Part shown: in pieces, positions 36,209 to 55,935 of the stretch
How positions within the stretch are numbered: the first letter of the stretch is position 1
How the letters are laid out: the number at the start of each line of letters is the position of its first letter
Source: an uncultured Magnetococcales bacterium
GTDB taxonomy: Bacteria > Pseudomonadota > Magnetococcia > Magnetococcales > CAYFNE01
Direction: 5' to 3'
Length of the DNA: 64,000 nucleotides
Assembly: GCA_964344355.1 (NCBI GenBank)
Contig: CAYFNE010000020.1
Coordinates: 120-64,119 of the forward strand
The notes under the pieces: generated by a model
What the model saw: the letters and a program-made list of their open reading frames with translations, nothing else
Databases searched by the model: none
Told to the model about the DNA's origin: nothing
Translations under genes and position numbers: made by a program

Positions 36209-36452
36209 TCGAGAGACGCTTTTTTTGGAATATTGCTTGAAACTCCTCTACAGCATGGGCAAGAATCACTGCGCTCGACGTGCGGTGACGGATCAGGGAC
36301 GTAATCCGATCACCGTCGATAATGGTACTCATGCGAGCGTTCATTAACTCAATTTATTCACCGAAAACGGGTCAACTTCCAATTCACTGTAAATCACGTC
36401 CAACAATGCACATTAAAGTCCAACGTGGTCTTTGAAAGGTGTGGGGGTAAAT

Positions 36453-38225
36453 ATGGGAAACAAAAGGTTGAAAAGAATGGCGGGCGCCGTGATTCCGGGG
36501 ATGATTCTCTCCCTGATGGCTTTCGCCCCAACGAAGGCGGAGGCCGTCACGGCCTCGAACGTGGCGCCCTGGCAACACGGCACCGAGGTGCCGGCGGGTA
36601 GCCCGACCAAGGATCCGATGCTCCTCTACGGGGCGGGCGGTCTCGACGGCAAGGTTTCGGTGATCGGTCTGCCGAGCATGCGCACCTTCCGTCACATCGA
36701 TGTCGGCGTGGATCTGCACGAACCGGTGTTCAGCGGCACCAACCAGGGCAACAAGAACGGCACCCCGGACGGTAAATATCTGTACGTCAACGACAAGGGC
36801 GCCAACACCGTCGGCGTCATCAATCTGCAGACCGGCTTCCTGGAGCGGCTGATCGCCCTGCCCTTCCCCTTCGGCGTGCATCACATCTCCCTGGACGACA
36901 CCGGTAAAATTCTCTACGCCACCGGTGAGTTGACCGGCAAGATGGCCAAGATCGACATCGCCTCCGGCAAGACCCAGGTGATCGACTGGGGTCCGGCCCC
37001 CAGCGCCCCGGACTATCTGGACGTGGACAAAAAAGGCCGTTATGTCTTCTCCGGCAACTACTACCACTCCACCGTCGGTGTGTTCTCGACCAATCCTTTC
37101 AAGTACATCAAGGAGATCCCGGTCGGCAAGAACCCCCACGGCACCGATGTCATCCCGGAAAGCACCATGGTGATCGTCAGCGACAAGCTGTCCGCCACCA
37201 TGACCGTGATCGATGTGGAAAAGCTGGCGGTCAAGAAGGTTCTGCCCACCTGCGCCGGTCCGCTGCACTCGGTGATGGACGTTTACGACAAGGATGGCGG
37301 CACCTATGAGCCCGGCAAGGACAGCCCCGAGGGACTGACCTCCAAATATGCCTATGAGAGCTGCTTCGTCTCCGACAGTAACGTCAAGATCGATCTGAAA
37401 AAACTGGAAGTGGTCGACGAAATCCCGACCCACTACCGTACCGGTCACATCGCCATCAGCGCCGACAACAAGTATGTCATCGCCCTGAACAAGTTTTCCA
37501 CCGGTCTGTTCAGCCCCACCGGCGTCGTCTTCCCGGTCAACTTCGAGTTGTGGGACGCCCGCGAGGACAGCCCGACCTACGGCAAGACCCTGCGCATCAC
37601 CCCGGTGGACGGCGAGCCGCACAACGCCAAATCCATCCATGCCTATCAGATCAAACGGTGGAACACCGGACAGGCTGAAAAGGGCGGGCTGATCAAAGGC
37701 AACACCCGTCTCATTCATCCGGCCCACCGCGCCAAGGCCAAGGTCTCCTTCCTGCCCAAATCCAAGGAGCGCCCCGGCGTGCGCATGGTTGACGGCGTGA
37801 AAGAGGTTCACTTCAAGGCCTTCAGCTACGGCTACATCCCCCGTCAGGTGCGCGTCAACAAGGGTGACAAGGTTCGCATGTTCGTCACCAACATCGACCG
37901 CGCGTCGGGTATCACCAAAAACCCCGACGTCACCATGGGCCTGACCGTCTACGGTCCCTATGGTCTGCGCACCAACCTCAGCGCCCCGCGTGGCGTGACC
38001 GCGGTTACCGAGTTCGAAGCTGATATCGCTGGCGAATATGCCATCTACTGTCAGCATTTCTGCGGTCCGCTGCATCTGGAGATGCGCGGAACGTTCTTCG
38101 TCGATGATCCCGACAAGGATGATTCCAACCTGGCCGTCGGTGACTATGACAAGGCCCAGAAACTGCCCGGCCTGGTCGAACACGAAGACGAGCTGGAAAT
38201 CGCCCCCCGGGCTCAGGAACTCTGA
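36453..38225 (+). CDS. nosZ: Divergent nitrous-oxide-reductase-like multicopper protein (Sec signal, propeller + CuA cupredoxin)
   Basis: Blocks 'DGKYLYVNDKGANTVGVINL', 'GKNPHGTDV', 'GPLHSVMD', 'YRTGHIAIS', 'GEPHNA' and the CuA motif 'YCQHFCGPLHLEM'. ATG at 36453 preferred over the track TTG at 36432. Confidence 0.8.
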   Translation: MGNKRLKRMAGAVIPGMILSLMAFAPTKAEAVTASNVAPWQHGTEVPAGSPTKDPMLLYGAGGLDGKVSVIGLPSMRTFRHIDVGVDLHEPVFSGTNQGNKNGTPDGKYLYVNDKGANTVGVINLQTGFLERLIALPFPFGVHHISLDDTGKILYATGELTGKMAKIDIASGKTQVIDWGPAPSAPDYLDVDKKGRYVFSGNYYHSTVGVFSTNPFKYIKEIPVGKNPHGTDVIPESTMVIVSDKLSATMTVIDVEKLAVKKVLPTCAGPLHSVMDVYDKDGGTYEPGKDSPEGLTSKYAYESCFVSDSNVKIDLKKLEVVDEIPTHYRTGHIAISADNKYVIALNKFSTGLFSPTGVVFPVNFELWDAREDSPTYGKTLRITPVDGEPHNAKSIHAYQIKRWNTGQAEKGGLIKGNTRLIHPAHRAKAKVSFLPKSKERPGVRMVDGVKEVHFKAFSYGYIPRQVRVNKGDKVRMFVTNIDRASGITKNPDVTMGLTVYGPYGLRTNLSAPRGVTAVTEFEADIAGEYAIYCQHFCGPLHLEMRGTFFVDDPDKDDSNLAVGDYDKAQKLPGLVEHEDELEIAPRAQEL

Positions 38226-38252
38226 TACCGCCCGGACGGGTAACGGCAACAC

Positions 38253-38277
38253 ATCCCCCCTGCATTTCAGGGGGGAT
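38253..38277 (+). other. Stem-loop after the nosZ-like stop (10-bp stem, no U-tract)
   Basis: ATCCCCCCTG-CATTT-CAGGGGGGAT read directly. Possible mRNA-stabilising or attenuating element rather than a full terminator. Confidence 0.4.
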
Positions 38278-38397
38278 CGTATCCGGATCGATGCATGACC
38301 CCGTTTCCCCGCCCTCCCCGCGATGGCGGGGAAACGGCCCGGAACCATAAATTTTATCGATTGGAACAGACGACCCGTGATCGACAAAGCGTTATGG

Positions 38398-38880
38398 ATG
38401 GCGACCCGCCTGGCAACCCTGGTTTTTTCGACCATGATCCTGCTGGGTGGTTGTGGGGAGGGTCCACAGGAGAGCCATAAACCGTTGCCGACGGAAAAAC
38501 CGGAAGCGGTGGTCAGTAAATTTTACGAATATATTTCGGAGGCGGGTATTCGCGGCGGCACCATCCCCATCAAGGAAGCCTACAAGATGGTCAGCCCGGC
38601 GACACGGATGAGCCAGCAACGGTTCGTCGGCATCGTCAAAAAATATCCACCCGGTTTCAAGGCCGAAATCGTCGACAGCCGAATCAAGGAAAAGGAGCGT
38701 CAGGCGGTGGTCACCATCGAATACCGGATGGCCTCCATGTTCGGCAAAGGTTACAAGGTCAGCACCAGACTGCCATTGGTGGTGGATGAGGAAAAAGGGG
38801 TTTGGCTGATCGATTTCACCGGTGAATCAGACGATCAGGATGCGGCGGCCATGAAAAAAAATACGGCGAAGGTGAAATAG
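38398..38880 (+). CDS. Small lipoprotein, unknown function
   Basis: Lipobox 'MILLGGC' after 'MATRLATLVFST'. Soluble alpha+beta-looking domain. ATG at 38398 is in frame within track ORF 38323..38880. Confidence 0.65.
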   Translation: MATRLATLVFSTMILLGGCGEGPQESHKPLPTEKPEAVVSKFYEYISEAGIRGGTIPIKEAYKMVSPATRMSQQRFVGIVKKYPPGFKAEIVDSRIKEKERQAVVTIEYRMASMFGKGYKVSTRLPLVVDEEKGVWLIDFTGESDDQDAAAMKKNTAKVK

Positions 38881-39516
38881 ATGGCCATGGGACTCATCGA
38901 CTGGCTGGAGCAGCGCACCGGCCTGGTGACCTGGCGGAAAAACAAGGGTGACCAGGCCATCCCGGCCCACATGGGTTTTTTGCGTTGTTTCGGTGGCATC
39001 TCCCTGCTGTTCATCATCCTGCAGGTGATTTCCGGCACCTTCATGCTCTTCCATTATCAGCCGCAGCCGCAGGAGGCGCTGAGGAGCATCGAACAGATGA
39101 GCAACGAAGTACCTTTCGGGGCGCTGTTCCGCAACCTGCACCGTTGGGGGGCGACGCTGTTGATGGCGACCATCTTTTCACACATGGTCAGCGTCGGTTT
39201 TCAAAAGGCCTATCGCAACCCGCGTGAATTGAACTGGGTTTCCGGGGTCCTGCAGCTCATCGTCGTTTTTCTGCTGTTGGCCACCGGTCTGTTGTTGCCG
39301 TGGGATTGGCGTTCCTACTGGTCGTTCGCCCTGTGGGTGGACTATCTGGAGACCTGGCCGTTGATCGGTGGTTGGCTGAAAGAGGCCCTGTTGGACAATT
39401 TCACCATCAACCGGGGATTCGTGATCCACATCCTGGTCCTTCCCCTGGTGTTGTTGATCCTGCTCCGGTTCCACTTTGGCATGGTGCGGCGTCACGGCAT
39501 CGCCGAGCCGCTGTAG
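38881..39516 (+). CDS. Cytochrome b6-like dihaem membrane subunit (cytochrome b N-terminal domain)
   Basis: 'LHRWGATLLMATIFSH' (H-x13-H) and 'IHILVLPLVLLILLRFH' (H-x14-H), plus 'LLPWDWRSYW'. Confidence 0.85.
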   Translation: MAMGLIDWLEQRTGLVTWRKNKGDQAIPAHMGFLRCFGGISLLFIILQVISGTFMLFHYQPQPQEALRSIEQMSNEVPFGALFRNLHRWGATLLMATIFSHMVSVGFQKAYRNPRELNWVSGVLQLIVVFLLLATGLLLPWDWRSYWSFALWVDYLETWPLIGGWLKEALLDNFTINRGFVIHILVLPLVLLILLRFHFGMVRRHGIAEPL

Positions 39517-39529: not shown

Positions 39530-40216
39530 ATGGACAGTGACAAAACGTCGCCGGATATGAAGATCGATCCCAAATACGCCGAGCCGTATCCCCAGGCGTT
39601 CTACCGGTTCTGGCCGCGGCACGTGATCATGGTGGTGATCATCGCCGGCGCCTTCATGGGATTGTTGTTTTGGTTGGCCAACCAGTATCCATTGCCGACC
39701 GATCAAAACATGCCGCCGATGCCCGATGAAGGGGCCTATATCCCGGCGCCGGAATGGTATCTGTTCATGCTGTTCCAGCCATTCTGGTATCTGACCGGCG
39801 ACAACGCCTGGTTGCGGCCGCTGGGCACCTTCTGGCTGCCGCTGTTGATCCTGATCGGACTGGTGGCGCTGCCGTTCGTTTTCGGCAGGAAGCGCGCCGC
39901 CGGCGGTCGGATGAAATTGTTGAAACGGTTGGGCATCGGCCTGATCGGCCTGGTGGTCTGGACCGCCGGCATGGCGGCGGTCGGCGGCAGTGGTTATCCG
40001 GCCAAGACCAACGGCTGCATCTCCTGCCACAACCCGATGATGGGGGTCCGGCAGGCGCTGCCGCCGAGCGACATGGGCAAGTTTTACCGGGAAAAGCGGC
40101 AACAGCAGATCGAGGTCGGCCGCTACCGGATTGGCAACACCATGGGAATGGGCGACTCCTACAAGGATGCCAACTGGCAACTGCGGCATTTTTACGAGCC
40201 GACGATGACATGGTAG
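39530..40216 (+). CDS. Subunit-IV-like membrane protein (cytochrome b C-terminal domain) fused to a C-terminal haem c motif
   Basis: 'IPAPEWYLFMLFQPFWYL' PEWY-type segment, three TM segments, 'CISCHN'. ATG at 39530 after GGAG. Confidence 0.75.
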   Translation: MDSDKTSPDMKIDPKYAEPYPQAFYRFWPRHVIMVVIIAGAFMGLLFWLANQYPLPTDQNMPPMPDEGAYIPAPEWYLFMLFQPFWYLTGDNAWLRPLGTFWLPLLILIGLVALPFVFGRKRAAGGRMKLLKRLGIGLIGLVVWTAGMAAVGGSGYPAKTNGCISCHNPMMGVRQALPPSDMGKFYREKRQQQIEVGRYRIGNTMGMGDSYKDANWQLRHFYEPTMTW

Positions 40217-41472
40217 TTCCAAGGAGTGGCGGGACATTCGGCGCTGGAAGCCGGCGGTCCGGGTACGGGCCGATGATGGTCCTGGCGCTATTGGCGGTCG
40301 TGGTGGTCACCCGGGTGACCCCGGTAGAGGCCACGGCGGCGAAAAAGGGGGATTCGATCATCACCGAATATCGGTTGCCCGAGGCGGTCAGTGCCCCATC
40401 GGGCATTGTGGTCGACGTCCCGGGACGGGTCTGGTTCACGGAAAAGATCGGAAAAAGTTTGACTATGTTCGATCCGGAGGGAAAACAATTCGAGGTTCAC
40501 ACCCTCCCCGATACCTGGAAAGGGATCGGGCCGTTGCGCATCGCCCTGGCCCCGGACGGTTCCATCTGGTTCACGGTCCGTCGTTGGGCCGACACCGAAA
40601 CGCCGACCAACCTGTTGGGCCGGTACACGCCGGCCAGCAACCGGTTTGACCGTTTCGACCTGCCCGATGGCATGGTGCCGGAAGATCTGGTGGTGGCTGA
40701 TGATGGCAGCGTCTGGTTTCTGGATCCGGACAGCAACCGGTTGCACCGGTTCCAACCGGAGACGGCGGCCTTGGAGAGTCATGCCATTCCCACCGCCAAC
40801 GGCTATCCGCGGCGCCTGGTACTGGATGGCCAGGGGGCGCTCTGGTTCGCCCAGTCCAATATCAACGGCATCGCCCATTTCGATCCGGTCGGCAAACGGT
40901 TTCAGGAGTACCGGATCCCGACCCCCTTCGCCAATCCGGGGGCGGTGGCGGTCGATGGCGCCGACAATGTCTGGTTCGTGGAGATGACCGCCAACCGTAT
41001 CGGGGTGTTCTACCCGTCGATGCAACGGTTCGACGAGGCCATGGTACCGACGGCGCGCGGTCTGCCCAACGCCATCGCCGCCGACGCCGGCGGCAACATC
41101 TGGTTTCTGGAGTACCGCGGCAACAAGGTGGGACTGTTCCTGCCCAAGGCCGCCGCTTTCCACGAGTTCACCATTCCCACCTATGACAGTCAACCGGGTG
41201 AGATGGCCCTGGATCGTTCGCGCAACCGGCTGTGGTTTTCCCAGGCCAGCACCGAATCGAAAAAGCTGGGACTGCTCGACATCGAGCGGGCGCTGGCGGC
41301 CAGCGCGCATCCACAACCGGAGCTTGACAAGAGCGCCGGAGGGATCGCCCAACGGGCCGCCGACGGCAAACGGTCGCGGGATATGGTCCGCATCCTGATC
41401 ACCATCATGATGGTCATCGTCTTCGTCGCCGGTTATCTCTACTACCGGCGTTTCAACAAGGTGTCACCGTGA
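40210..41472 (+). CDS. Seven-blade Vgb/COG4257-like beta-propeller protein with N-terminal signal and C-terminal TM anchor
   Basis: Repeated 'G..WFTE/WFLE/WFVE' blades (PGRVWFTE, DGSIWFT, DGSVWFLD, GALWFAQ, DNVWFVE, GNIWFLE, NRLWFSQ). Tail 'MVRILITIMMVIVFVAGYLYY'. ATG at 40210 overlaps the upstream stop. The earlier part of track ORF 39754.. overlaps the previous gene. Confidence 0.75.
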   Translation: MVVPRSGGTFGAGSRRSGYGPMMVLALLAVVVVTRVTPVEATAAKKGDSIITEYRLPEAVSAPSGIVVDVPGRVWFTEKIGKSLTMFDPEGKQFEVHTLPDTWKGIGPLRIALAPDGSIWFTVRRWADTETPTNLLGRYTPASNRFDRFDLPDGMVPEDLVVADDGSVWFLDPDSNRLHRFQPETAALESHAIPTANGYPRRLVLDGQGALWFAQSNINGIAHFDPVGKRFQEYRIPTPFANPGAVAVDGADNVWFVEMTANRIGVFYPSMQRFDEAMVPTARGLPNAIAADAGGNIWFLEYRGNKVGLFLPKAAAFHEFTIPTYDSQPGEMALDRSRNRLWFSQASTESKKLGLLDIERALAASAHPQPELDKSAGGIAQRAADGKRSRDMVRILITIMMVIVFVAGYLYYRRFNKVSP

Positions 41473-42473
41473 GGGCGGCGGTCCCCTTCCGGGCCTTGAT
41501 TGCCGCCTCGCTGTTGGCCGGGGCGTTGATGAGCACCGCGGTGGTCCATGCGGCCGCCATCGTTTCCCATCCGCTGCCAACCGCCGTGGCCATGGCGTCG
41601 CAGATCGCCATCGACAAGGCCGGGGATGTTTGGTTCATCGAAGGCAACGCCAATCAGATCGGCCGGTTCCGGTTGGCCGATGGCACGTTCCGTGAGTTCA
41701 AGATTCCGACCCTGGGCAGTCAACCGGCGGACATCACCATCGATGGGACGGGGCACATCTGGTTCACCGAGTCGGACGCCAACCAGTTGGGTCGTTTCGA
41801 CCCGGCCACGGAGGCCTTCACCGAATATGACATCCCCACCATCGACAGCATGCCGACCCGGTTGGTCGCCGCTGGTGGCGCGGTCTGGTTCACCGAATTC
41901 TATGGTAACCGGATCGGTCGTCTGGATACGGCCAGCGGCGCCATCCGCGAATATCCACTGCCGACCGCCGACGCCCAGCCCACCGGCATCACCGTCGATG
42001 ATGCGGGCATCGTCTGGTTCCTGGAAACGCGCGGCAACAAGCTGGGACGCCTGGATCCCGCCGATGGCGGCATCGTCGAGTTCGAGTTGCCCACCCCTTT
42101 TTCGGTGCCGCGCGATTTGATCGCCGCCGGTACCGGCAAGCTTTGGTTCGGGGCGCGCAGCCGGCAACAACTGCTCTCCTTCGACCCGGCCACCAGGCGA
42201 TTCGATACCTTCCCCATTCCCGGCGGCGGCGCCATCGAGGGGTTGGCGGTCAATGATGAGGGGCAGATTCTTTTTTCACTGGGACGCTCTGGCAAACTGG
42301 GACTGTTCGATCCGGTCGGCCAGGCGTTTGCGGCGTTCGACGCCTTGTCCGGGGACAGCCGTCCTTTCGGGATCGATCTCGATCCCCGCGGGAACATCTG
42401 GTTCTCCGACATCGCCAAGAACGCCTTGGTGCGTGTTGATGGTAAAACGGTTTCTCAACTATTAATCCGATAA
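41469..42473 (+). CDS. Second seven-blade Vgb/COG4257-like beta-propeller protein (periplasmic)
   Basis: Signal 'LIAASLLAGALMSTAVVHA'. Blades GDVWFIE, GHIWFTE, GAVWFTE, GIVWFLE, GKLWFG, GQILFS, GNIWFSD. GTGA start/stop overlap. Confidence 0.8.
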   Translation: MRAAVPFRALIAASLLAGALMSTAVVHAAAIVSHPLPTAVAMASQIAIDKAGDVWFIEGNANQIGRFRLADGTFREFKIPTLGSQPADITIDGTGHIWFTESDANQLGRFDPATEAFTEYDIPTIDSMPTRLVAAGGAVWFTEFYGNRIGRLDTASGAIREYPLPTADAQPTGITVDDAGIVWFLETRGNKLGRLDPADGGIVEFELPTPFSVPRDLIAAGTGKLWFGARSRQQLLSFDPATRRFDTFPIPGGGAIEGLAVNDEGQILFSLGRSGKLGLFDPVGQAFAAFDALSGDSRPFGIDLDPRGNIWFSDIAKNALVRVDGKTVSQLLIR

Positions 42474-42508: not shown

Positions 42509-43456
42509 ATGAAACAAAGCAAAAAAATGTTGGTACTTGGAGCCATGAGTCTCGCGGTCTCTTTCACCCTGGCCGGCAGCGCCGAGGCTGCGGACAAGCG
42601 TTGTGTGCTCATGGACAACACCCGGGTCGAGTGCCCGGTCCGGAGCGATGCCGAGTTGGCCAAGGCGGCGGCCGCCTATGAAGCCGAGGCTGATGCCATG
42701 GCCAATGGCCAGTCGGGAAGCACCTACGGCATCGCGCCTTTCGACTACCTGACCGGTGTCGGCAAGCGGGCGAAGGTCGCCGATGGCTACAAGACCGCCA
42801 GCGGTTATGGCCATGATACCGGCAAGGTGGGCACCGAACTGTGGGATCGCGTGAAAAAGCCGGGCTCCGGCGAGACGGTCTACAACCAGTGGACCAACAA
42901 CTGGTCGCCGACCTTCAAGGACACCCTGGTTCCGGGTGCCGATCCCAACGAAGGCAAACAGTGGTACTATGTCTACTGCATCGGCTGCCACGGTTGGCTG
43001 CTCAATGGTGACGGACCCAACGCCGCCGAGTTGGATCCCAAACCGCGCGTCCTGACCGATGGTTCCTACATGAACAAAAAGTCCAACCTGCAACTGTTCC
43101 AGGTCATCAAGGGTGGTGGTGAAGCGGTCAGCCTCTCCCCGGTCATGCCCTCCTGGGGCAACTATCTGCAGGATCAGGACATCTGGAACATCGTCGCCTG
43201 GCTCCGCGCCATGGCCGATGTCAAACCGCCCACATCCGTCGAAGAGTACCTGAGCCCGAAATCCTCCTTCAAGCCGATCGCCGGTGACATCACGCCGCTG
43301 ACCGCCGCCAAGAACGATGATTTCCAAGAGGCCCAGGAGATGATGGAAGCCGGTGTCGCCGGCCGTGGCGGAGCCATCAAGGGCGCCGGTTATGTGGAAG
43401 GCGGCATGCGCAAGCCCCCGACCCACGTCAAATCCAAGGTCAAACAGGGATACTGA
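42509..43456 (+). CDS. Periplasmic monohaem cytochrome c with an N-terminal domain of unknown function
   Basis: Signal 'MKQSKKMLVLGAMSLAVSFTLAGSAEA', 'YCIGCHG', distal 'SPVMPSWG'. Confidence 0.85.
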   Translation: MKQSKKMLVLGAMSLAVSFTLAGSAEAADKRCVLMDNTRVECPVRSDAELAKAAAAYEAEADAMANGQSGSTYGIAPFDYLTGVGKRAKVADGYKTASGYGHDTGKVGTELWDRVKKPGSGETVYNQWTNNWSPTFKDTLVPGADPNEGKQWYYVYCIGCHGWLLNGDGPNAAELDPKPRVLTDGSYMNKKSNLQLFQVIKGGGEAVSLSPVMPSWGNYLQDQDIWNIVAWLRAMADVKPPTSVEEYLSPKSSFKPIAGDITPLTAAKNDDFQEAQEMMEAGVAGRGGAIKGAGYVEGGMRKPPTHVKSKVKQGY

Positions 43457-44765: not shown

Positions 44766-44977
44766 ACGTATCGACCGTCTGAAAGCCGGACCGGTTGGTG
44801 AAAAAGCCGCTACACGCCCAAAATGAATGACTACGCCGCTTTTTTTCCGTTGACCACCCGGTCCCGATCGGGCCAAAACAACCCCCGAAATCGGCCGACC
44901 CATGAATACGGCAACGACCTGCCGATGATGACGACGATCGACGCCCCACCCGTAACAGCCTGCAAGGAGTTGAAAGA

Positions 44978-46075: not shown

Positions 46076-46078
46076 TTC

Positions 46079-46327: not shown

Positions 46328-46852
46328 ATGAAAAAAATCGGGTTGATCATGATGGGGCTGCTGTTGGCCGCGGTATTGGGACTCGGTGGTCTCTTGTTGG
46401 TGCCCAACTCCATCGGCGAGGAGGTGTTGCGCAATGCCAAGGCGCGGGGTTATCTGCCCTATGATCCGGATGAAGCGGTGGCCATGGCCTATGAGCGGTG
46501 CGGGGGGTGTCATGAGGATGAAAAAATTCTCAAATATTGCGCCCGCTGCGGTCCACCCTTTATCGTTGTCGCCAATTTCATGCAAAAATATATCGACGTC
46601 GCCAACAGTCAGGGGGCGTCGATCCCGCCCTTCACCCAAGCGGAGTTGATCGCCATCATCCAGGTTTGGAACGGGCTGGTCGGCAACTGGGAGAAGGATT
46701 GGCGGCGGGAAGACCTGAAACATCTGCTGCGCGGCAATCAAGTCATGATCGACCTGCTGGAGACGCCGGTGGAACAACGGCCCATCGAGTCGGCCTTGAA
46801 GGACAGAAGCGCCCCCGGTTCCTACAAGGAAGTGGATCAATCGGGTGGCTGA
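46328..46852 (+). CDS. Membrane-anchored small protein with a single CXXCH motif
   Basis: N-terminal TM 'IGLIMMGLLLAAVLGLGGLLLV'. 'CGGCHEDEKILKYCARCG'. Confidence 0.6.
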   Translation: MKKIGLIMMGLLLAAVLGLGGLLLVPNSIGEEVLRNAKARGYLPYDPDEAVAMAYERCGGCHEDEKILKYCARCGPPFIVVANFMQKYIDVANSQGASIPPFTQAELIAIIQVWNGLVGNWEKDWRREDLKHLLRGNQVMIDLLETPVEQRPIESALKDRSAPGSYKEVDQSGG

Positions 46853-48607: not shown

Positions 48608-50217
48608 AAAATTTTGGCACTTCCCTTCTGATCGGCATCGCCGCGCTGGTCTGCATCGCCGCCGGCGGCATCATTCAATCGATCACCGGCGAGTTGGGCA
48701 ACCTGCCCCTGTCGCTGATCTGGATCGGCATCCTCGGGCTGCTGCTGCTGTTCTACGTCAACTTCGGCCGCATCCGCGAGCTGCTGGCCACCCGTTCCAC
48801 CCGCTATGGCGCCAACATGATCGTGATGATCACCATTTTCGTGGTCATCCTCGGCATGATCAGCACCATGTCGGTCAAATACAAGATACGCGCCGATCTC
48901 ACCGCCAACCAGCGGTACTCGCTGTCCAAACAGACGGTCAAACTGTTGCGCTCCCTGGACCGGGAGGTGGAGGCCATCGCCTTCTACCGCACCGATGAGC
49001 GCACCCGTCAGGCGATGGTGGACCTGCTGGGCGAGTACGCCTATCACTCGCCGCATTTCAAGTTCTGGTTCGTCGATCCCGACAAACGGCCGGCCGAGGC
49101 GGCCAAGTATGGCGTCACCTCCTACCGGACCACCCTGTTGCGCAGCAAGGGCAAACAGGAGGTGGTCTCCTTCGAAAGCGAATCCAAGGTCACCAACGCC
49201 CTGATGAAGGTGCTGCGCGACAAGGTGAAAACGGTCTATCTCACCCGGGGCCACGGTGAAAACAGCATCGGTGACCAGGCGGAGTACGGGTACGCCCTGG
49301 CGAAAAAGTTCATGGAACAGGAGAGCTACCGGGTCAAGGAGTTGTTGCTGGTGGGTGAAAAAACCATCCCCGAGGATGCCTCGGTGGTGGTGGTCAGCGG
49401 TCCGCGCAAGGATTTGCAACCGGAAGAGTTGGAAAAACTGGACCTGTTCCTCAAGGATGGCGGCAGCGTCCTGTTCATGCTCGATCCCGCCCCCCTCCCC
49501 CACACCCTGGATTATCTGGAACGGCTCGATTTCAAGGTCGGCAACGATATCGTCGTCGACAAGTTGATCCGCATCATGGGCACCAACTATCTGACGCCGG
49601 TAGTGATGGATTACAACAAGGAACACCCCCTGACCCGGGACATGGAGAACATCTACACCTTTTTCCCCATCGCCCGATCGGTGGAGATCGACGACGATCC
49701 CGGCAAGGGCCGTTACACCCTGGCGCGCAGCAGCTCCAGCAGTTGGGCGCGCAGCAAGGGTCAGCTCAAGGATGACAACGTTCAGTTCGACCCCGAGCTG
49801 GATCGGCGCGGTCCGGTGGGCATCATCTCGGTGGCCGCGGTCAAGGTGGCTGAATCCGGTGACGGCAAAAAGGCCGAACCCACCGCCGATGGTGGCGACG
49901 CAGCGGCGAAAAAGGGCGAAAAAAGCGGTGATGAAATCAACCGTTGGGGGAAGATCATCGTCACCGGTGATTCCAACTTCGCCAGCAACACCCACATCAA
50001 ACTGGCCGGCAATCGCGATCTGTTCCTCAATACCATCAACTGGCTGGCGGCCGAGGCGGCGCTCATTTCGGTGCGGGGCAAACAACCGGGCCTGAGCCCG
50101 TTGACCCTCACCTCCTCGGAAGGACGCCTGGTCTTTTGGGTATCGGTGATCATCATGCCGTCGCTGTTCCTGGTCATCGGCGCCGGCGTCCTGCTCAGGC
50201 GTAAGAACGAAGCATGA
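48604..50217 (+). CDS. GldG-like ABC-transporter auxiliary protein (N- and C-terminal TM, large periplasmic domain)
   Basis: N-terminal and C-terminal TM helices flank a ~450-aa soluble region, the typical GldG architecture. ATGA overlap at 48604. Confidence 0.65.
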   Translation: MKNFGTSLLIGIAALVCIAAGGIIQSITGELGNLPLSLIWIGILGLLLLFYVNFGRIRELLATRSTRYGANMIVMITIFVVILGMISTMSVKYKIRADLTANQRYSLSKQTVKLLRSLDREVEAIAFYRTDERTRQAMVDLLGEYAYHSPHFKFWFVDPDKRPAEAAKYGVTSYRTTLLRSKGKQEVVSFESESKVTNALMKVLRDKVKTVYLTRGHGENSIGDQAEYGYALAKKFMEQESYRVKELLLVGEKTIPEDASVVVVSGPRKDLQPEELEKLDLFLKDGGSVLFMLDPAPLPHTLDYLERLDFKVGNDIVVDKLIRIMGTNYLTPVVMDYNKEHPLTRDMENIYTFFPIARSVEIDDDPGKGRYTLARSSSSSWARSKGQLKDDNVQFDPELDRRGPVGIISVAAVKVAESGDGKKAEPTADGGDAAAKKGEKSGDEINRWGKIIVTGDSNFASNTHIKLAGNRDLFLNTINWLAAEAALISVRGKQPGLSPLTLTSSEGRLVFWVSVIIMPSLFLVIGAGVLLRRKNEA

Positions 50218-51161
50218 ACTTTACCCGCAAAACCCTGTTCTGGGTCATCACCCTGGTCTTTCTCGCCGGCACCTTCCACCTGATGGACCGCAAGGTGGAA
50301 GAGACCAAAAAGATCGAGGAGGTCAAACAACGGCTGTTCCCCTTCGAGCCGGAGCGGATCGACAGCTTTGAAATCAGCAGCCGGGGCCGTCTGCGCGCCC
50401 GGGTGGTGCGTGACGACGCCGGCTGGCAACTGGACAAACCGTTGACCGCCAAGGGCGACAAGGAGGCCATCGACAAATTTTTGGTCAATGTCCTCAAGGC
50501 CAAACGGGACGCGGTGCTGTTTGAAACGCCGGAGCCGGACAAACTGAAAGAGTTGGGGTTGGACGATCCCGAACTGGAGATGCATTTTACCGTTCAGGGA
50601 CGGACCACCACCATCCAGTTCGGCGACAAAGGACCGACCAACAATGTCGCCTATGCCCGTTTCAAGGGCGAAACCCGGGTGTTGCGCATCCATTCGGATG
50701 TCAAACAGGAGGCGGACAGGAGCGTTTATCAACTTCGGGACAAGACGGTTCTGGACTTCGAACCATTGGAAACGGTGCGCATGGAGCTGATCCGCCAGGA
50801 TAAAAAACCGGTGGTGGTGCGCCATGACCGCGGCATGTGGGACATGATCGAACCGGTGGTGGCCCGGGCCAACATGGCCAATGTCCTGGAGACCATGTAT
50901 ACGATCAAAAATGGTGAAATCAAGGCTTTCATCCATGAAAACCCGGAGGACCCGGCCCTTTACGGCCTGGATGAGCCCAAAATCATCGTCGCCCTGCTGC
51001 ACAAGGAAGCCAAGAAGCCGCAACGGTTGTTGATCGGCAAAAAAGACCGGTCGCGCCGGGGTTATTTCGCCAAACGCGAAGGAGAAGCACCGGTATTTTT
51101 ACTGGAGGAGCCGCTGGTACACAACCTGATGGCCGACGACGGCAAATGGCGGGAGGGATGA
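50214..51161 (+). CDS. DUF4340-like periplasmic protein with N-terminal anchor
   Basis: N-terminal TM 'LFWVITLVFLAGTF'. Positioned after a GldG-like gene, as DUF4340 proteins usually are. ATGA overlap. Confidence 0.55.
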   Translation: MNFTRKTLFWVITLVFLAGTFHLMDRKVEETKKIEEVKQRLFPFEPERIDSFEISSRGRLRARVVRDDAGWQLDKPLTAKGDKEAIDKFLVNVLKAKRDAVLFETPEPDKLKELGLDDPELEMHFTVQGRTTTIQFGDKGPTNNVAYARFKGETRVLRIHSDVKQEADRSVYQLRDKTVLDFEPLETVRMELIRQDKKPVVVRHDRGMWDMIEPVVARANMANVLETMYTIKNGEIKAFIHENPEDPALYGLDEPKIIVALLHKEAKKPQRLLIGKKDRSRRGYFAKREGEAPVFLLEEPLVHNLMADDGKWREG

Positions 51162-51164
51162 TCG

Positions 51165-51950
51165 ATGCATGAAGAGAAAAAAGGTTTTTTCACCCCCTGG
51201 CGGAACGTCGTCCTCGGTTTGCTGGCGGTGGCCGTCATCGGTGGTCTGGTCGCCTGGGTCGGAAAAGGGCTGGTGAGCCCGCCCACCGGGCCGAAATTTC
51301 CGCTGGAACTGTCGGATGTCATCCTGCCATCGCCAAAAATCATCAAACCGTTCCAATTGGTCGATCAGGATCGGAACCCTTTCGGCCTGGAACAACTCAA
51401 AGGGAACTGGACCTTCCTGTTTTTCGGCTATACCCACTGTCCGGATGTTTGCCCCCTGGCCCTGGGCATGTTGGCGGAACTGTTCGAACGGTTGAAAACG
51501 AGCGCCCCGGACGCCCTGGAACGGACCAGGGTGGCGTTCATCTCCGTGGATCCCAAACGGGACACCACGGAACGGTTGAAACAGTATGTGCTCTATTTCA
51601 ACCCGGCCTTCAAAGGGGTGACCGGCACTGAAAAGGCCATCAAGGCCTTTTCCCGGCAACTGGGGGCGCTCTATTTCATGCCCGGGGATTTCAAGGGTGC
51701 CGATGGCAAACCGGTGAAGAGCGGCCTGGTCGACCCCAACGCCAAGACGCCGGAAGAGGATGAGGGGTATCAGGTCAGTCACACCAGCGCCTTTTTCCTG
51801 GTGGACCCCCTGGGACGGTTGGTGGCGATCTTCCCGGAATACAACAACACCGACATCATTCAGGAAGAATATGTCCGCATTCGCAAGTTCGTCAAAATTC
51901 GCAACATCTATGGAGACGCCGAGCGGGCCGAAACGGGTGAACAGGGTTGA
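51165..51950 (+). CDS. SCO1/SenC copper chaperone
   Basis: 'FFGYTHCPDVCP' CX3C motif and downstream 'VSHTSAFFLVDP' His. N-terminal anchor. Confidence 0.9.
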   Translation: MHEEKKGFFTPWRNVVLGLLAVAVIGGLVAWVGKGLVSPPTGPKFPLELSDVILPSPKIIKPFQLVDQDRNPFGLEQLKGNWTFLFFGYTHCPDVCPLALGMLAELFERLKTSAPDALERTRVAFISVDPKRDTTERLKQYVLYFNPAFKGVTGTEKAIKAFSRQLGALYFMPGDFKGADGKPVKSGLVDPNAKTPEEDEGYQVSHTSAFFLVDPLGRLVAIFPEYNNTDIIQEEYVRIRKFVKIRNIYGDAERAETGEQG

Positions 51951-51956: not shown

Positions 51957-52715
51957 ATGTTGAAACGGCTGATTCCCCTACTGTTGCCGCTGCTCCTGTG
52001 GAGCGGTTGGGCCGGCGCCGATGATCTGGTCATCGGTCGCATGCGCGTGGCGGTATGGCCCGAATATGACGATCCCGGCGCCCTGGTCACCTACGATGGC
52101 CGGTTCGCCGACCCGACCGCTTTCCCCACCAAGACCCATTTTTATCTGCCAAAAAATGTCGTGGTCAGCGATGCCTGCAGCCTGTCGCCGGATGGGCAAC
52201 ATTTTTGCCAGATATTCAAGATTGAAGAGGGGGACGAGACGTGGAATGAAATCGAACTGTGGCTGCCGTTCCCCAATTTTTATCTCAGCTTTCATCTACC
52301 GCAACTGGACCTGAGTTCGGACCGGCGTCGATTGGACTATCGGTTCCTGTCCAACCACACCATTCAAATCCTCGAACTGGATATTCAACAACCGTTGCGC
52401 TCCAGCGATTTTCGCATCACCCCCACCGGTGGGAAGTCGAGTGTGCAGAAGGATTTCAACCATTTCGCCTATCGTCTGGAAAACATTGAAGCGGATGATG
52501 AGCAAGTGTTCGAAATCACCTATGTGAAAGCCGACCATAAACCCTCGGTGGACATCAAATATTCATCGATGTCCGGCCCCAAGGTTTGGGGCTCCCCGTA
52601 TGAAACCCAGAAAAAGGTCGGTGTTTTCATCTATCTCCTGGTCGGCTCCGGTGTGGTGGTCCTGCTGGGCATCCTCTGGTATCTGTTGCGAAAAAAACGG
52701 CCGGCGCCGTCATGA
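51957..52715 (+). CDS. Secreted protein with C-terminal TM anchor, unknown function
   Basis: Signal 'LIPLLLPLLLWSGWAGA'. C-terminal 'VFIYLLVGSGVVVLLGILWYLL'. Confidence 0.6.
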   Translation: MLKRLIPLLLPLLLWSGWAGADDLVIGRMRVAVWPEYDDPGALVTYDGRFADPTAFPTKTHFYLPKNVVVSDACSLSPDGQHFCQIFKIEEGDETWNEIELWLPFPNFYLSFHLPQLDLSSDRRRLDYRFLSNHTIQILELDIQQPLRSSDFRITPTGGKSSVQKDFNHFAYRLENIEADDEQVFEITYVKADHKPSVDIKYSSMSGPKVWGSPYETQKKVGVFIYLLVGSGVVVLLGILWYLLRKKRPAPS

Positions 52716-53134
52716 CCATTTTCAGACAGTTGTTGCTGCCGTTGCTGTTTTTGGCCGTGCTGTCGCCGACCGCCGCCCGGGCGTTGACCGTCGGCGAGGT
52801 GGCCCGTGATCTGGCCTGCCCCTGTGAATGTCCCCTGATCCTGGAAGATTGCAACATGAGTTGCGGCCTGGACTGGAAAAATCAGGTGGGGGAGATGATT
52901 CGCCAGGGCAAGAGCAAACAGGAGATCATGGATTATTTTTATGAAAAACATGGCGAGGCGGCGCACCTGACCACCCTGCAGCGCATCGAGGGAAAAATTT
53001 TTCAGTACACCCGCGGATTTGGCGATCGGGAGTGGTTGTTGCTCTGGAGCGGTCTCGGCCTGTGGGTGTTGATCCTGTTCCTGGGCATTTTCGTCGGTGT
53101 CCGAAAATTCCTCTCCCGAACCAAAACCCCTTAG
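52712..53134 (+). CDS. CcmH/NrfF-like protein with atypical CPCEC motif
   Basis: Signal peptide, 'LACPCECPLILEDC' where CcmH has LRCxxC, 'KSKQEIMDYFYEKHGE' CcmH-like helix, C-terminal TM. Confidence 0.6.
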   Translation: MTIFRQLLLPLLFLAVLSPTAARALTVGEVARDLACPCECPLILEDCNMSCGLDWKNQVGEMIRQGKSKQEIMDYFYEKHGEAAHLTTLQRIEGKIFQYTRGFGDREWLLLWSGLGLWVLILFLGIFVGVRKFLSRTKTP

Positions 53135-53138
53135 ATCG

Positions 53139-53978
53139 GTGCGTACCCTGTTGCTCACCCTGGCGGTTTTCCTGGCGCTCGCCCTCACCGCCGCCAGCAT
53201 CGGTTTTCTGGTATTGATCGATCCGGGTCCGCAAGGACGTCTCGCCTATCTGGAACGTTCAGCACGCCTGTTGTTGCACCGGCACGGATTGGTGAGCGAT
53301 TTGAGCCAGGCGGAGATCGAAGCGGTTTACCGATCGACCTGCACGCGCAAATGCCATGGCCGGGATGTGATTGAAAAAACCCCGCGCACGGCCATGGAGT
53401 GGGAGATGATCGTGCAGCGGATGAAACAGGCCGTTCGCGCCGGGGTGCGCGCCGACATCACCGAACCGGAGGCGCGGACGGTGGTCACCCATCTGCAGCG
53501 AAACTTTTTGAGCAACGTGCCGACGGTGATGCCGCCAAAGATCATGGCCTTTATGAAAAAACATCTGTGGCGTATCGATTTCGGCGAGCGGGACATCTAT
53601 CTGGATGTCATCTACATGCCGCTCCGGCAACGGTATCTGGCCCCTTATATCGCCCGGACCCAATCGCCGTTGACCGGCGCCGATACCCAGTTCGTTCTCT
53701 ATATCAACACCCACCAGGGGGTTTTGCCCGGCTGGGACCTGACCCACCTGGCCACCCTGGATGATGGCCGGGGCGCCCCTTTGAACTCGCACCGGTGGCA
53801 GGTGCTCTATGAAGACAATGACAAACACCACCGTCAGGGCATTCTCAGTTTCCCGCCCCTGCGCGGCCAGGGTGAAAAACCACGAACCCTGGAGATGACC
53901 CTGAAACTGCCCAACATGCGCAAACGGGTGTTTCAATGGTTTTTGCCGATTCCGGAACTGGAGGAAAACGTCGAATGA
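53139..53978 (+). CDS. Signal-anchored protein with CX3CH motif, unknown function
   Basis: GTG at 53139 is 4 nt after the upstream stop and gives 'VRTLLLTLAVFLALALTAASIGFLVLI'. 'STCTRKCHGRDVIEKTPRTAMEWEMIVQRM' (nt 53340-53357 for C..CH). Confidence 0.55.
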   Translation: MRTLLLTLAVFLALALTAASIGFLVLIDPGPQGRLAYLERSARLLLHRHGLVSDLSQAEIEAVYRSTCTRKCHGRDVIEKTPRTAMEWEMIVQRMKQAVRAGVRADITEPEARTVVTHLQRNFLSNVPTVMPPKIMAFMKKHLWRIDFGERDIYLDVIYMPLRQRYLAPYIARTQSPLTGADTQFVLYINTHQGVLPGWDLTHLATLDDGRGAPLNSHRWQVLYEDNDKHHRQGILSFPPLRGQGEKPRTLEMTLKLPNMRKRVFQWFLPIPELEENVE

Positions 53979-54493
53979 ACCGTGCCGCGAGATCACGACC
54001 CGGATTTTCCCGGCCCCTGCTGGGCCTGCTGGCGGTCTGCGCCCTGCTTTTGTCCGGCTGTGAGGAGGAGTCGCCGCCGACCAGCAAGAGCCCGGCGCCC
54101 GATTTCACCCTCGACCTGTTCACCGGTGGACAGTTCAAGATGGCCGAGCACAAGGGCCAACCGGTGGTGATCAATTTTTTCGCCTCCTGGTGTGTGCCCT
54201 GTGGCGAAGAGGCGCCGGTTTTTGAGACCGGTTATCATGAATATCGGCAAAAGGGGGTGCGCTTCGTCGGCGTCGCCAGCCAGGATACCGAGAGCAAGGC
54301 CAAGGGGTTCGTCAAAAAACATGGACTCACCTTTCCCACCGGTCTCGACCACACGGGAAAAATTCGCGAAGCCTATGGGGTGTTCGGCATGCCCACCACC
54401 TTTTTCGTCGATCGCAACGGCATCATCAACGAACTCCACGTCGGCGGCGTCACCAAGGATTTGATGAAATATGAACTGGACAAAATTCTTTAA
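53975..54493 (+). CDS. TlpA/ResA-like periplasmic thioredoxin lipoprotein
   Basis: Lipobox 'LLLSGC'. 'FFASWCVPCGEE'. ATGA overlap. Confidence 0.85.
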   Translation: MNRAARSRPGFSRPLLGLLAVCALLLSGCEEESPPTSKSPAPDFTLDLFTGGQFKMAEHKGQPVVINFFASWCVPCGEEAPVFETGYHEYRQKGVRFVGVASQDTESKAKGFVKKHGLTFPTGLDHTGKIREAYGVFGMPTTFFVDRNGIINELHVGGVTKDLMKYELDKIL

Positions 54494-54986
54494 CCCCCGT
54501 CTGGCCTTCCTGCTGGCGCTGCTCCTGCCGCTGTCCGGCTGTCTGGATGGCAAACCATTGGAGCCATTGCGCACCGGTGACCCGGCGCCGCCCTTCTCCC
54601 TGACCCTGACCAACGGCAAGACGGTCCGCACCCTGGCGGACTATCGCGGCAAGGGACTGGTGGTCACCTTCATGTCCTCCTGGTGCCCCTGCTCCAACGA
54701 CTCGCTGCCGATGTTCGCCGCCCAACACGCCCGCCACAAAGAACATATCGAATTTTTGATGGTCGGCATCCAGGAGGCGGAGAGCAAATTCAACCAATTC
54801 GTCAAAAACAAAAAAATCCCCTACGCCACCGCCTACGACACCGCCGGCATGGCCCGTGAATATGGGGTCAACGCCCCGCCGACCACGGTGTTCATCGATG
54901 CGGACGGCATGGTAAAACGGTTTTTCTACGGCAACATCAAGGATCACCAGGCCGATTTCCCACGCTGGGTCGAGGAGGTGCTGTAA
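54471..54986 (+). CDS. TlpA-like thioredoxin-fold lipoprotein with CPC in place of CXXC
   Basis: Lipobox 'LPLSGC'. 'FMSSWCPCSND' (nt 54684-54692). Confidence 0.75.
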   Translation: MNWTKFFNPRLAFLLALLLPLSGCLDGKPLEPLRTGDPAPPFSLTLTNGKTVRTLADYRGKGLVVTFMSSWCPCSNDSLPMFAAQHARHKEHIEFLMVGIQEAESKFNQFVKNKKIPYATAYDTAGMAREYGVNAPPTTVFIDADGMVKRFFYGNIKDHQADFPRWVEEVL

Positions 54987-55687
54987 TGGGTTTTCCGGAA
55001 GCGGTCTGGGGGGGATTTTCCTCTTTTTACTCCATCTGGCAGGTTTGTATTCTACAAATCAGCCCTTTTTTCCTCGTCTATCTGACCGGTCTGTTCCTCG
55101 CCGCCCGCAGTGTCGGCCTCGATCCCGGCGTCGGCCGCTGGGTACTGGTGCCCGGCGCGGCCTATACGGTGGGATTTTCCATCCTTTTCGCCATTAAATC
55201 CTCCACCGGTTTTTACATCGGTCGCTATTTGAACTATCACATCGAGGCGTTGAGTGCCGGTGCCGGTTTCATCTTTCTCCTGTTGGCCGTGCATCTGTTG
55301 TTGAGCGGCCGTCCGGCCTGGATGGCGCGGTTAAACACCCTGCCGTTGGCGGCGGTATACGGTCTGTTGATCGGCCTCACCTTCGCCCTCATCTACTCCC
55401 CCTGCATCACCCCGACCCTCTCCACCATTCTCGGCATGTCGGTGCGTCCGGAGTTGGCATCCAAAGGCAGTGTGTTGGCCTTGGCCTATGGTCTGGGCAT
55501 GAGTTTGGCCTTCCTCCTCGCCGGCGCCATTTTAATCACGGTTTTGAACCGTTGGCCGGCGGTGCGAAACCGGCAACGGTGGATACTGGATGGTTGTGGC
55601 GTGGTGATGTTGATCCTGGCCGGCATGAACATCAGCGGTGTGATGGTCTACTACAAGGCCTTTTTCCTCGGTCTGCTGGTACAATGA
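54986..55687 (+). CDS. ccdA: CcdA/DsbD-family thiol-disulfide transporter
   Basis: Six TM segments with membrane-embedded Cys residues in 'IWQVCILQISPFF' and 'LIYSPCITPTL'. Confidence 0.8.
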   Translation: MGFPEAVWGGFSSFYSIWQVCILQISPFFLVYLTGLFLAARSVGLDPGVGRWVLVPGAAYTVGFSILFAIKSSTGFYIGRYLNYHIEALSAGAGFIFLLLAVHLLLSGRPAWMARLNTLPLAAVYGLLIGLTFALIYSPCITPTLSTILGMSVRPELASKGSVLALAYGLGMSLAFLLAGAILITVLNRWPAVRNRQRWILDGCGVVMLILAGMNISGVMVYYKAFFLGLLVQ

Positions 55688-55935
55688 ACCGCGGACCGGT
55701 CAGACTGCCGCCGGGGTTGAAAAAACAGATATTCGGCACGGTACTGCTGGCCATCGGTCTGTTCAACATCACCCTGGACAACGCCCTGGGCCGGAATCCG
55801 GACCTGTTTCATTCGTTGCTGGTGGTGGTCGGGCTGCCGTTGTTCATTTTCGGTGGTTGGCAAAAAAAACAGTCCGGGAGAGAAACGCCCCCGGAAACCA
55901 ACGGCCTCCGCCCGCCACCCCCGGAAACAGGATGA
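55684..55935 (+). CDS. Small two-TM membrane protein
   Basis: ATGA overlap with the ccdA stop. 'IFGTVLLAIGLFNITL' and 'LLVVVGLPLFIFGGW'. Confidence 0.5.
   Translation: MNRGPVRLPPGLKKQIFGTVLLAIGLFNITLDNALGRNPDLFHSLLVVVGLPLFIFGGWQKKQSGRETPPETNGLRPPPPETG

Follow-up and report, generated by a model that had tools for sequence, protein, structure and literature searches.

In a 64-kb stretch of DNA from an uncultured Magnetococcales bacterium (contig CAYFNE010000020.1 of assembly GCA_964344355.1; referred to below, at its full length, as the window) we find a train of 22 co-directional genes, g1 to g22, occupying positions 36432–55935 of the plus strand and headed by a gene for a lactonase-type nitrous-oxide reductase (L-NosZ, or clade III NosZ). 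From the sequence features set out here, we judge it likely that the region is the clade III cluster of a Magnetococcales-like bacterium, in which a non-canonical set of helper genes would mature the enzyme and feed it with electrons by the mechanism proposed below. An earlier interpretation made from the letters of the window and its open reading frames (ORFs)—the sequence-only reading—had already seen a NosZ-type enzyme with a self-consistent but unconventional accessory set; this core is supported both by the local absence of the canonical partners and by the recurrence of the same gene modules beside L-nosZ in other genomes.

To our knowledge, N2O, a major greenhouse gas, has no biological sink other than N2O reductase. 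Assembly of the copper-sulfide centre of the enzyme, CuZ, had been held to require NosDFYL. Clade III enzymes evidently manage in the absence of these proteins, and in the window all of the candidate helper genes are present together, compactly arranged and in one direction; the following groups can be defined: g7; g2–g4 with g9; g5/g6; g10–g14; and g15–g22.

Genes were delimited from the ORF listing and from the GC content of third codon positions (GC3), which runs from 0.67 to 0.85 in each gene of the train, shadow ORFs on the opposite strand having the reverse pattern. The co-directional arrangement with short gaps and overlaps described by the sequence-only reading is upheld on both counts, its estimate of about 23 genes coming down to 22. 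Five junctions are 4-nt ATGA/GTGA overlaps—g5/g6 (41469–41472), g11/g12 (47822–47825), g13/g14 (50214–50217), g16/g17 (52712–52715) and g21/g22 (55684–55687)—whilst g20 and g21 overlap by a single nucleotide, and gaps of more than 90 nt occur at three places only (38225–38323, 44765–44978 and 46075–46328). A scan of 55 predicted proteins of the window against Pfam and NCBIfam bore out nearly all of the domain labels proposed earlier, with qualifications that are given beside the genes concerned; scans of the window with Rfam and for tRNAs found nothing.

The reductase gene and its putative control

The ORF of g1 opens at TTG 36432, from which we count its residues, the likely start being ATG 36453; the gene thus extends over 36453–38225 on the plus strand. 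Its product, 590 amino acids long, combines a seven-bladed propeller with a C-terminal CuA cupredoxin domain and scores 804.4 bits on the NCBIfam equivalog model NF052460 (‘L-NosZ’; cut-off 700), residues 54–552 aligning with model positions 1–480 of 480. On the canonical models it fails, with 178.9 bits for clade II (TIGR04246) and 132.5 bits for clade I (TIGR04244) against a cut-off of 625 in each case; amongst solved structures it matches NosZ in the PDB with an E value of ~3e-23. The corresponding Pfam matches are to YNCE (E 2e-15), Lactonase (E 6e-10) and nos_propeller (E 6e-9), and relatives of g1 carry the name ‘beta-propeller fold lactonase family protein’. The L-NosZ family was described in 2025 (He et al., Nature 646:152; doi 10.1038/s41586-025-09401-4; PMID 40836093), and a paper that cites this work (PMC13274427) gives N2O reduction by the family as acetylene-sensitive. 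A bioRxiv preprint (10.64898/2026.07.10.737647) filters for L-NosZ with a hidden Markov model, a set of motifs that includes CX2FCX3HXEM, DXHH/GXHH, PHG and GPLH, and a length of 400–900 amino acids; g1, whose length falls within that range, carries YCQHFCGPLHLEM, GVHH, NPHG, GPLH and EPH.

Alignment of 131 homologues of g1, of 42–100% identity, reveals seven histidines that are invariant in 130–131 of them (H96, H150, H151, H236, H279, H339 and the histidine of the GEPH motif), together with C540, C544, H548 and M551, equally invariant, which make up a CX3CX3HX2M site for CuA. On these features g1 is an L-NosZ with seven invariant histidines predicted to form a CuZ-type centre, plus a predicted CuA site; catalysis of N2O to N2, as well as the CuZ and CuA content of the protein, are predictions from the conservation of ligands. 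The signal peptide is of the Sec type and, because the N-terminus is without a twin arginine, export would be by the Sec route.

In a Nitrospinota metagenome-assembled genome (MAG; L052:1186–4617, JACRGN010000237) we also observe a 53%-identical L-NosZ paralogue from which the HH pair is missing, as are the histidine of EPH and the cysteines of CuA; this paralogue lies in an open frame of ~1144 codons and is possibly a non-catalytic or fused derivative.

Upstream of g1, within the 865-bp divergent intergenic region that separates it from the first gene (u1) of a neighbouring cluster, are three exact matches to the FNR/Dnr/NnrR-type box TTGAY-N4-RTCAA (35954–35967, 36163–36176 and 36195–36208). 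Four such boxes are present in the window, against 0.37 expected, and three of the four stand ahead of g1. Of 58 non-redundant related loci, 30 have the same box in the 700 bp that precede L-nosZ; its density there (0.73 per kb) is 25-fold that of the background (0.029 per kb) in the rest of the loci. Regulators of the FNR/Dnr/NnrR type control canonical denitrification genes, and the boxes fit control of g1 by a regulator of this kind, as expected for anaerobic N-oxide respiration; a gene for a Crp/Fnr-family regulator was not seen in the window.

Amongst the 55 scanned proteins there is no match to NosD (PF05048), NosL (PF05573), NosR (FMN_bind), NosX or a Rieske protein, and a regular expression for the Rieske motif (CxHxGC...CxCH) finds nothing in the six frames of the window; the absence of NosD, NosL, NosR and Rieske protein that the sequence-only reading had remarked upon thus holds throughout the 64 kb. 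Nor does the expression match in any locus of the L-NosZ branch to which g1 belongs. It does so in loci of the Desulfovibrio/Sporomusa branch, just upstream of cytochrome b, so that the lack of a Rieske protein characterises the branch of g1 and does not stem from the way of searching. Clade III MAGs without identifiable canonical nos accessory genes have been reported, the genes near their reductases being cytochromes and transporters, with only NosF/NosY-like homologues (Wang et al., ISME Commun 2026, PMC13477213).

Candidate helper modules and flanking genes

All 22 proteins were compared by tblastn with 67 genome loci that encode a relative of L-NosZ, and modules were counted in the 24 of these loci that have at least 8 kb on both sides; as the flanks end at 10 kb, the counts are lower bounds. 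The cytochrome c gene g7 lies near L-nosZ in every one of the 24, the propeller genes g5/g6 in 15, g10 and the bd-like gene u3 of the neighbouring cluster in 14 each, g3/g4 in nine, the ABC module in seven and g16–g18 in six. All modules recur near L-nosZ, with varying order and orientation, and the synteny that the sequence-only reading had called for is found in many distant lineages, among them Rhodospirillaceae, Hyphomicrobiales, several Gammaproteobacteria, Gallionellaceae and other Betaproteobacteria, Zetaproteobacteria, Nitrospirota, Desulfobacterota and Magnetococcales. Since each module recurs in this way, the train is not a chance juxtaposition; its modules are separable units, not always contiguous. 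Both the identities of the genes and their linkage are matters of observation, and we conclude that the accessory genes are a conserved modular set, distinct from NosDFYL/NosR, that accompanies L-nosZ across phyla.

The nearest named relative, a MAG of Magnetococcus sp. YQC-5, is 87% identical and matches the gene order of the window from u7 through g17 (loci L001, L073 and L113). A 92%-identical ENA contig (ERZ24794647, our locus L193) has the same order from g1 to g12 under independent gene calling; in its upstream part (L193:332–9579) nirS, for cytochrome cd1, stands directly ahead of L-nosZ. With it are genes for cytochromes c, for a cd1-domain protein like NirN/NirF, and for a molybdopterin oxidoreductase whose subunits include 4Fe-4S, NrfD and NapC/NirT types; the bd-like cluster is absent there. 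This is a denitrification context.

The most constant neighbour, g7 (42509–43456, +), encodes a 315-residue monohaem cytochrome c (Pfam cytochrome c) of a family comprising 362 clusters, with C157, C160, H161 and M213 invariant and a highly conserved N-terminal domain; its AlphaFold model is poor, with a mean predicted local distance difference test (pLDDT) value of 57.6 that falls below 50 in that domain. Wherever g2–g6 are absent g7 directly follows L-nosZ on the 3' side, and in the well-covered loci it is the universal partner of L-NosZ. The proposal of the sequence-only reading that electrons enter through Rieske-less cytochrome b/c modules needs one qualification: the modules accompany only nine of the 24 loci, far fewer than does g7.

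Those modules comprise g2–g4 and g9. The lipoprotein gene g2 (38323–38880, +; lipobox LLGGC) is always directly upstream of g3, in the place where the Rieske gene usually stands, and is kept together with g3/g4 in 22 loci; its product has no match in Pfam or NCBIfam and no conserved Cys, His or Met, which leaves the idea of a NosL analogue unsupported. Next comes g3 (38881–39516, +; Cytochrome_B, E 6.5e-36), a dihaem protein of the cytochrome b6 type whose top PDB matches are to cytochrome b6 over the full length (E 1e-38), with H87, H101, H183 and H198 invariant, as well as C36; a cysteine at this position binds haem ci in b6f. The product of g4 (39530–40216, +) has three membrane helices, a PEWY motif (Qo site) and a C-terminal CXXCH haem-c domain, PEWY and C164/C167/H168 being kept in 22 homologues. 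In g9 (44978–46075, +; Cytochrome_B, E 1.1e-31) we recognise a fused paralogue of g3 and g4—cytochrome b, ‘subunit IV’ and CXXCH—that is 40% identical to g3 and 33% to g4 (the latter over g9 residues 196–337), is without the ci cysteine, and has VDWF where g4 has PEWY. The earlier label of g4 as subunit IV with haem c is borne out by its motifs and by this likeness to the C-terminal half of g9, whereas neither Pfam nor the PDB provides a match.

Both g5 (40210–41472, +; PF24684, E 2.5e-45), which ends in a C-terminal membrane anchor, and the secreted g6 (41469–42473, +; Pfam, E 5.7e-58) are propellers of the Vgb_lyase family, g6 matching virginiamycin B lyase in the PDB with an E value of 1e-70. 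Vgb lyase has a conserved catalytic His/Glu metal site. Amongst homologues of g5 there is no conserved Cys, His or Met, and no His is conserved amongst 25 homologues of g5 or g6; lyase activity is therefore unlikely, and we have rejected it for both despite the matching fold.

Beyond g7 the train is interrupted by an intrinsic-terminator-like hairpin on the plus strand (43496–43541), 41 nt past the g7 stop codon, with a 9-bp G+C stem followed by U6-CA-U8 (ΔG –25.5 kcal/mol, z –2.97). The hairpin, a strong one, shares its sequence with the stretch of g8 that codes for the signal peptide, its U-run corresponding to Phe-rich codons. The terminator argues for at least two transcription units, so that the single operon of the sequence-only reading survives as a co-directional array: g1–g7 probably form one unit, and g8–g22 would be transcribed by read-through or from promoters of their own. 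The product of g8 itself (43467–44765, +; Peripla_BP_6, E 8e-32), whose start is uncertain, the ORF opening at 43353, is a periplasmic binding lipoprotein of the LivK type; g8 and g9 occur as a pair in Magnetococcus, as they do in several loci of Gallionella/Alcaligenaceae.

Always placed ahead of the ATP-binding cassette (ABC) genes is g10 (46328–46852, +), which encodes a small membrane-anchored protein with no family match in Pfam or NCBIfam. The label of a small CXXCH protein is correct as far as it goes, a second invariant motif, CXXC, having been overlooked; in 20 homologues C58, C61, H62, C71, C74 and M85 are invariant. There follow an ABC ATPase (g11; 46875–47825, +; Pfam ABC_tran), an ABC-2 permease (g12; 47822–48607, +; Pfam), a GldG-like auxiliary protein (g13; 48595–50217, +; ABC_transp_aux) and a DUF4340 protein (g14; 50214–51161, +; DUF4340, E 3.6e-34), a module that many lineages have in linkage with either L-nosZ or the g16 block. 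The best NCBIfam models for g11–g13 are GldA (312.9 bits, cut-off 402.6), GldF (152.9, cut-off 288.5) and GldG (80.6, cut-off 389.9), all of them below cut-off. Compared with NosF in the PDB g11 gives an E value of 1e-39, ABCA-type and other ATPases outscoring it, and g12 matches NosY marginally (E 0.029). With the pair nearer to GldA/GldF, and the match to NosF unspecific, the suggestion that it parallels NosFY, and that GldG and DUF4340 proteins replace NosD, stays an analogy.

The last part of the train opens with g15 (51165–51950, +), a Sco copper chaperone (SCO1/SenC, PF02630; E 3.3e-36, 124.6 bits, cut-off 22.8) in which the CxxxC cysteines C92 and C96 and the histidine H206 are invariant. 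The product of g16 (51957–52715, +) appears to be a secreted beta-sandwich protein with a C-terminal membrane anchor, as judged from its AlphaFold2 model (pLDDT 87.7), with C74, H82, C84, H113 and H134 invariant in alignments. None of its 420 homologue clusters has a Pfam domain, and Foldseek returns only generic beta-sandwiches with TM-scores of 0.4–0.5 (ERAP1 domain I, ribophorin I); with no copper-chaperone fold amongst these matches, PCuAC and CopC were dropped as candidate homologues. Three natural fusions of g16 to CcmH (P0126, P0171 and P0223; 380–388 residues) tie g16 to g17 (52712–53134, +), a CcmH/NrfF-like protein (PF03918, E 2e-8; NrfF, E 1.7e-5) with an invariant CPCEC...C..C cluster. 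A membrane-anchored protein with a CX3CH haem motif is encoded by g18 (53097–53978, +; weak match to SorB cytochrome, E 4e-4); the motif is invariant in 12 homologues, and H206, H244 and H245 of the C-terminal domain are invariant too. Two TlpA/ResA-like thioredoxin-fold lipoproteins, g19 (53936–54493, +) and g20 (54471–54986, +), match redoxin/AhpC-TSA with E values of 1e-18 to 1e-28 and have conserved cysteines, CPC replacing CXXC in g20. For g21 (54986–55687, +), a putative CcdA/DsbD-like membrane thiol transporter, the CcdA label draws support from two invariant membrane cysteines, C21 and C140 (SPCITP), whilst the DsbD_TM score (E 8e-4; 19.2 bits) is under the Pfam cut-off of 27.1. A small two-helix membrane protein, g22 (55684–55935, +), completes the train.

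The order g16–g21 is fixed in 44 loci from 42 assemblies, often with g22, Sco and another TlpA next to it, and at least 25 of the 42 assemblies also contain L-nosZ. These were obtained by an alignment-based profile search of ~185,000 species genomes, a search with the single g16 sequence giving five loci in place of 44. In an Actinomycetes MAG (JAGXFV010000033; L072) a distant g16-like ORF, of 24–26% identity, lies near a Rieske/cytochrome b pair in a locus without L-nosZ; this ORF is possibly a far-diverged relation of the g16 family, placed in a different setting.

Whilst the genes of the train fall where the sequence-only reading had placed them, the linked neighbourhood continues upstream, into a separable cluster, u1–u9, that occupies 23871–35587 on the minus strand and diverges from g1. 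Its products comprise four cytochromes c (a dihaem, a monohaem and two further), a dihaem-c/EB_dh haem-b protein, a HemY-type protoporphyrinogen oxidase, an AhbD/NirJ2-like radical-SAM protein, a Usp/PCP_red protein and a 620-residue membrane protein, u3 (32100–33962), that is only distantly like cytochrome bd subunit I; u3 has eight invariant histidines and is 77–89% identical across classes. The cluster adjoins L-nosZ in the 14 of 24 loci counted above and is co-directional with it in Gallionellaceae. It is found, however, in at least 585 loci, most of them without L-nosZ within 10 kb and some with tandem duplication, and we have rejected the notion of a module specific to L-NosZ; amongst close orthologues 18 of 37 assemblies contain L-nosZ or the g16 block. 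The u cluster would seem to be a separate respiratory module, often linked to L-nosZ.

Further upstream, positions 691–23874 hold a chemotaxis/two-component cluster with CheR, CheB, CheD, CheA, three CheW-domain proteins, three methyl-accepting chemotaxis proteins, a hybrid histidine kinase and several receivers; one of the chemotaxis proteins (11924–14056, –) has a NIT nitrate/nitrite-sensing domain and adjoins the N-oxide respiration island. On the 3' side of the train are a phage-lysozyme-family gene (55969–56556, –), an FdhA/NuoG-like molybdopterin oxidoreductase with an N-terminal 2Fe-2S/4Fe-4S region (57161–59887, –) and, in a lower-GC stretch (52% GC, 60–62 kb), an H-NS-like ORF with the motif TWSGKGRAPQW (60425–60847, –).

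A proposed route and its alternatives

By analogy with characterised systems, we can sketch the parts that the helper genes might play. Quinol would be oxidised at the Rieske-less b6-type modules—g2–g3–g4, the fused g9, and possibly the neighbouring bd-like/cytochrome c cluster—and electrons would pass from the haem c of g4 or g9 to the cytochrome c g7, and thence through CuA to CuZ, the Sec-exported L-NosZ reducing N2O to N2 in the periplasm. For maturation of the enzyme, reducing equivalents would be carried over the membrane by the CcdA-like g21 and handed to the TlpA-like g19 and g20, which would hold three sets of cysteines in the reduced state: those of Sco (g15), those of the CuA site and those of g16/g17. 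Copper delivery would fall to Sco with the Cys/His-rich g16, g17 and g18, whilst g10, the GldAFG-like ABC proteins and the DUF4340 protein would stand in for NosDFY/NosL in the assembly of CuZ. Having no conserved metal ligands, the propellers g5/g6 may be scaffolds. In its fullest form, which we put forward tentatively and at rather less than an even chance, the proposal is that g7, g10–g14 and g16–g21 with Sco provide a complete route of assembly and electron supply independent of NosDFYL/NosR, with His151 serving in place of His130, a methionine in CuA in place of the gating histidine, and the u cluster as a further quinol-oxidising partner. Were this so, the CuA methionine would represent a naturally occurring substitution at a position regarded as essential in canonical NosZ.

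A number of observations weigh against the reading of the region as a clade III cluster matured and fed in this way. When the numbering of Pseudomonas stutzeri is mapped onto g1 through HMMER alignments to NosZ in the PDB, an invariant Glu97 is found at the position of the canonical CuZ ligand His130, the extra His151 aligning with Gly179, adjacent to the equivalent of His178; and Met502 stands at the first CuA histidine, H583, the flexible ligand of CuA in the P. stutzeri enzyme. Both shifts set g1 apart from every solved NosZ. Met502 is present in 124 of the 131 homologues, the histidine being kept only by the distant Desulfovibrio/Sporomusa branch. The synteny sample, for its part, consists of MAG contigs with 10-kb flanks that were retrieved by patterns taken from the sequence of the g1 region itself. 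The ABC genes are, as their model scores suggest, generically GldAFG-like with a marginal likeness to NosY; the modelled fold of g16 gives no functional clue; the terminator after g7 means that the maturation genes may be expressed separately; and a canonical nosDFYL/nosR set could exist outside the window.

Should such a set exist, g1 might be a genuine L-NosZ whose copper centres nonetheless depend on canonical NosDFYL, and its electron supply on NosR, NosB or bc1, encoded elsewhere in the genome; the genes for ABC, GldG, Sco, TlpA and CcdA proteins further along the train would then serve other periplasmic cytochromes or copper proteins of the same respiratory island, for instance its many c-type cytochromes. 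We think this unlikely. It is true that the sequence in hand is the 64-kb window, that the ABC genes resemble GldAFG and not NosFY, that the terminator parts g1–g7 from the remainder and that the g16–g21 block often lies more than 10 kb from L-nosZ; CcmH, TlpA and CcdA are moreover classical components of cytochrome c maturation, and the odd CX3CH motif of g18 might need a dedicated apparatus. Yet clade III MAGs without the canonical accessory genes are on record (PMC13477213), the modules co-occur with L-nosZ in at least six classes or phyla despite rearrangement, and g16, present in so few assemblies of the ~185,000 species genomes, is found with L-nosZ in the majority of them.

More improbable again is that proteins of the g1 branch are NosZ-like copper enzymes with another substrate or role and a different chemistry. 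The shifts at Glu97/His151 and Met502 could be read in this way, as could the entirely different accessory set, the frequent presence of a bd-like/haem cluster of no assigned function and the loss of the ligands altogether in the Nitrospinota paralogue; against it stand a score above the curated equivalog cut-off for L-NosZ, the invariance of the seven histidines and of the CuA Cys/His/Met residues, the N2O reduction reported for the family, the adjacency of nirS in the closest relative and the FNR-type boxes upstream. That the train brings unrelated operons together by mere chance, for which three intergenic gaps and one strong terminator might be adduced, is scarcely credible and already contradicted, given that the modules recur in unrelated lineages and that the order is identical in three Magnetococcus-like contigs. 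We thus continue to favour a clade III L-NosZ cluster with a non-canonical helper set.

Comparison with known systems

With the clade I clusters nosRZDFYLX of Pseudomonas stutzeri and Paracoccus the region shares the two-domain architecture of the reductase, in which five of the seven CuZ histidines and the CuA Cys/His/Met residues align; it differs in having no Tat signal, NosR, NosX or NosDFYL. The clade II clusters (Wolinella, Anaeromyxobacter) are closer in that export is by Sec and that a membrane quinol-dehydrogenase module and a small cytochrome c lie by nosZ. There, however, the arrangement is nosZ-nosB-nosGH/C1C2, or Rieske/cytochrome b, with nosDFYL, whereas here NosB, NosD, NosL, NosGH and Rieske protein are all missing and the ligands of g1 are changed at two positions. 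The Desulfovibrio/Sporomusa branch of L-NosZ is clade II-like in this regard, a Rieske gene being kept beside that for cytochrome b.

The split cytochrome b6 with its haem-ci cysteine has counterparts in the QcrABC complexes of the b6c type (Firmicute/heliobacterial) and in cyanobacterial b6f. In QcrC of Bacillus a ‘subunit IV’ with PEWY is likewise joined to a haem-c domain, the arrangement of g4. Here, by contrast, there is no Rieske subunit, the lipoprotein g2 taking its usual place, and g4 has no detectable similarity to a solved subunit IV. The gliding-motility transporter GldAFG of Flavobacterium and NosDFY likewise share with g11–g14 the plan of an ABC-2-type exporter accompanied by a sizeable auxiliary protein in the periplasm, NosF being amongst the best small bacterial PDB matches of g11; the module of the train scores below the Gld cut-offs, has no NosD beta-helix, and adds DUF4340 and the Cys-rich g10. 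Finally, the Sco, the thioredoxin-fold lipoproteins and the CcdA-like protein recall the CuA-maturation route represented by TlpA-ScoI-CoxB in Bradyrhizobium and by CcdA-ResA in Bacillus, with the differences that they are embedded in a fixed block with g16, g17 and g18, that g20 has CPC rather than CXXC, and that no PCuAC homologue was detected.

The closest likeness is to the published L-NosZ clusters themselves: the same family model and motifs, a Sec signal, no canonical accessory genes, cytochromes and transporters nearby, and an ABC ATPase and permease only distantly like NosF and NosY. Nothing that defines those clusters differs here. With the L-NosZ family published in 2025, and its missing canonical accessory genes also in print, the region is not a new kind of system; its host is Magnetococcales-like, where the papers name Nitrospirota, Nitrospinota, Desulfobacterota, Pseudomonadota and Myxococcota, and all of the modules stand together in one 19.5-kb co-directional train. 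Subject to comparison with He et al., what may be new is the conservation of the set module by module, the universality of g7, the fixed g16–g21 block, the two shifts of ligand and the enrichment of FNR-type boxes ahead of the reductase gene.

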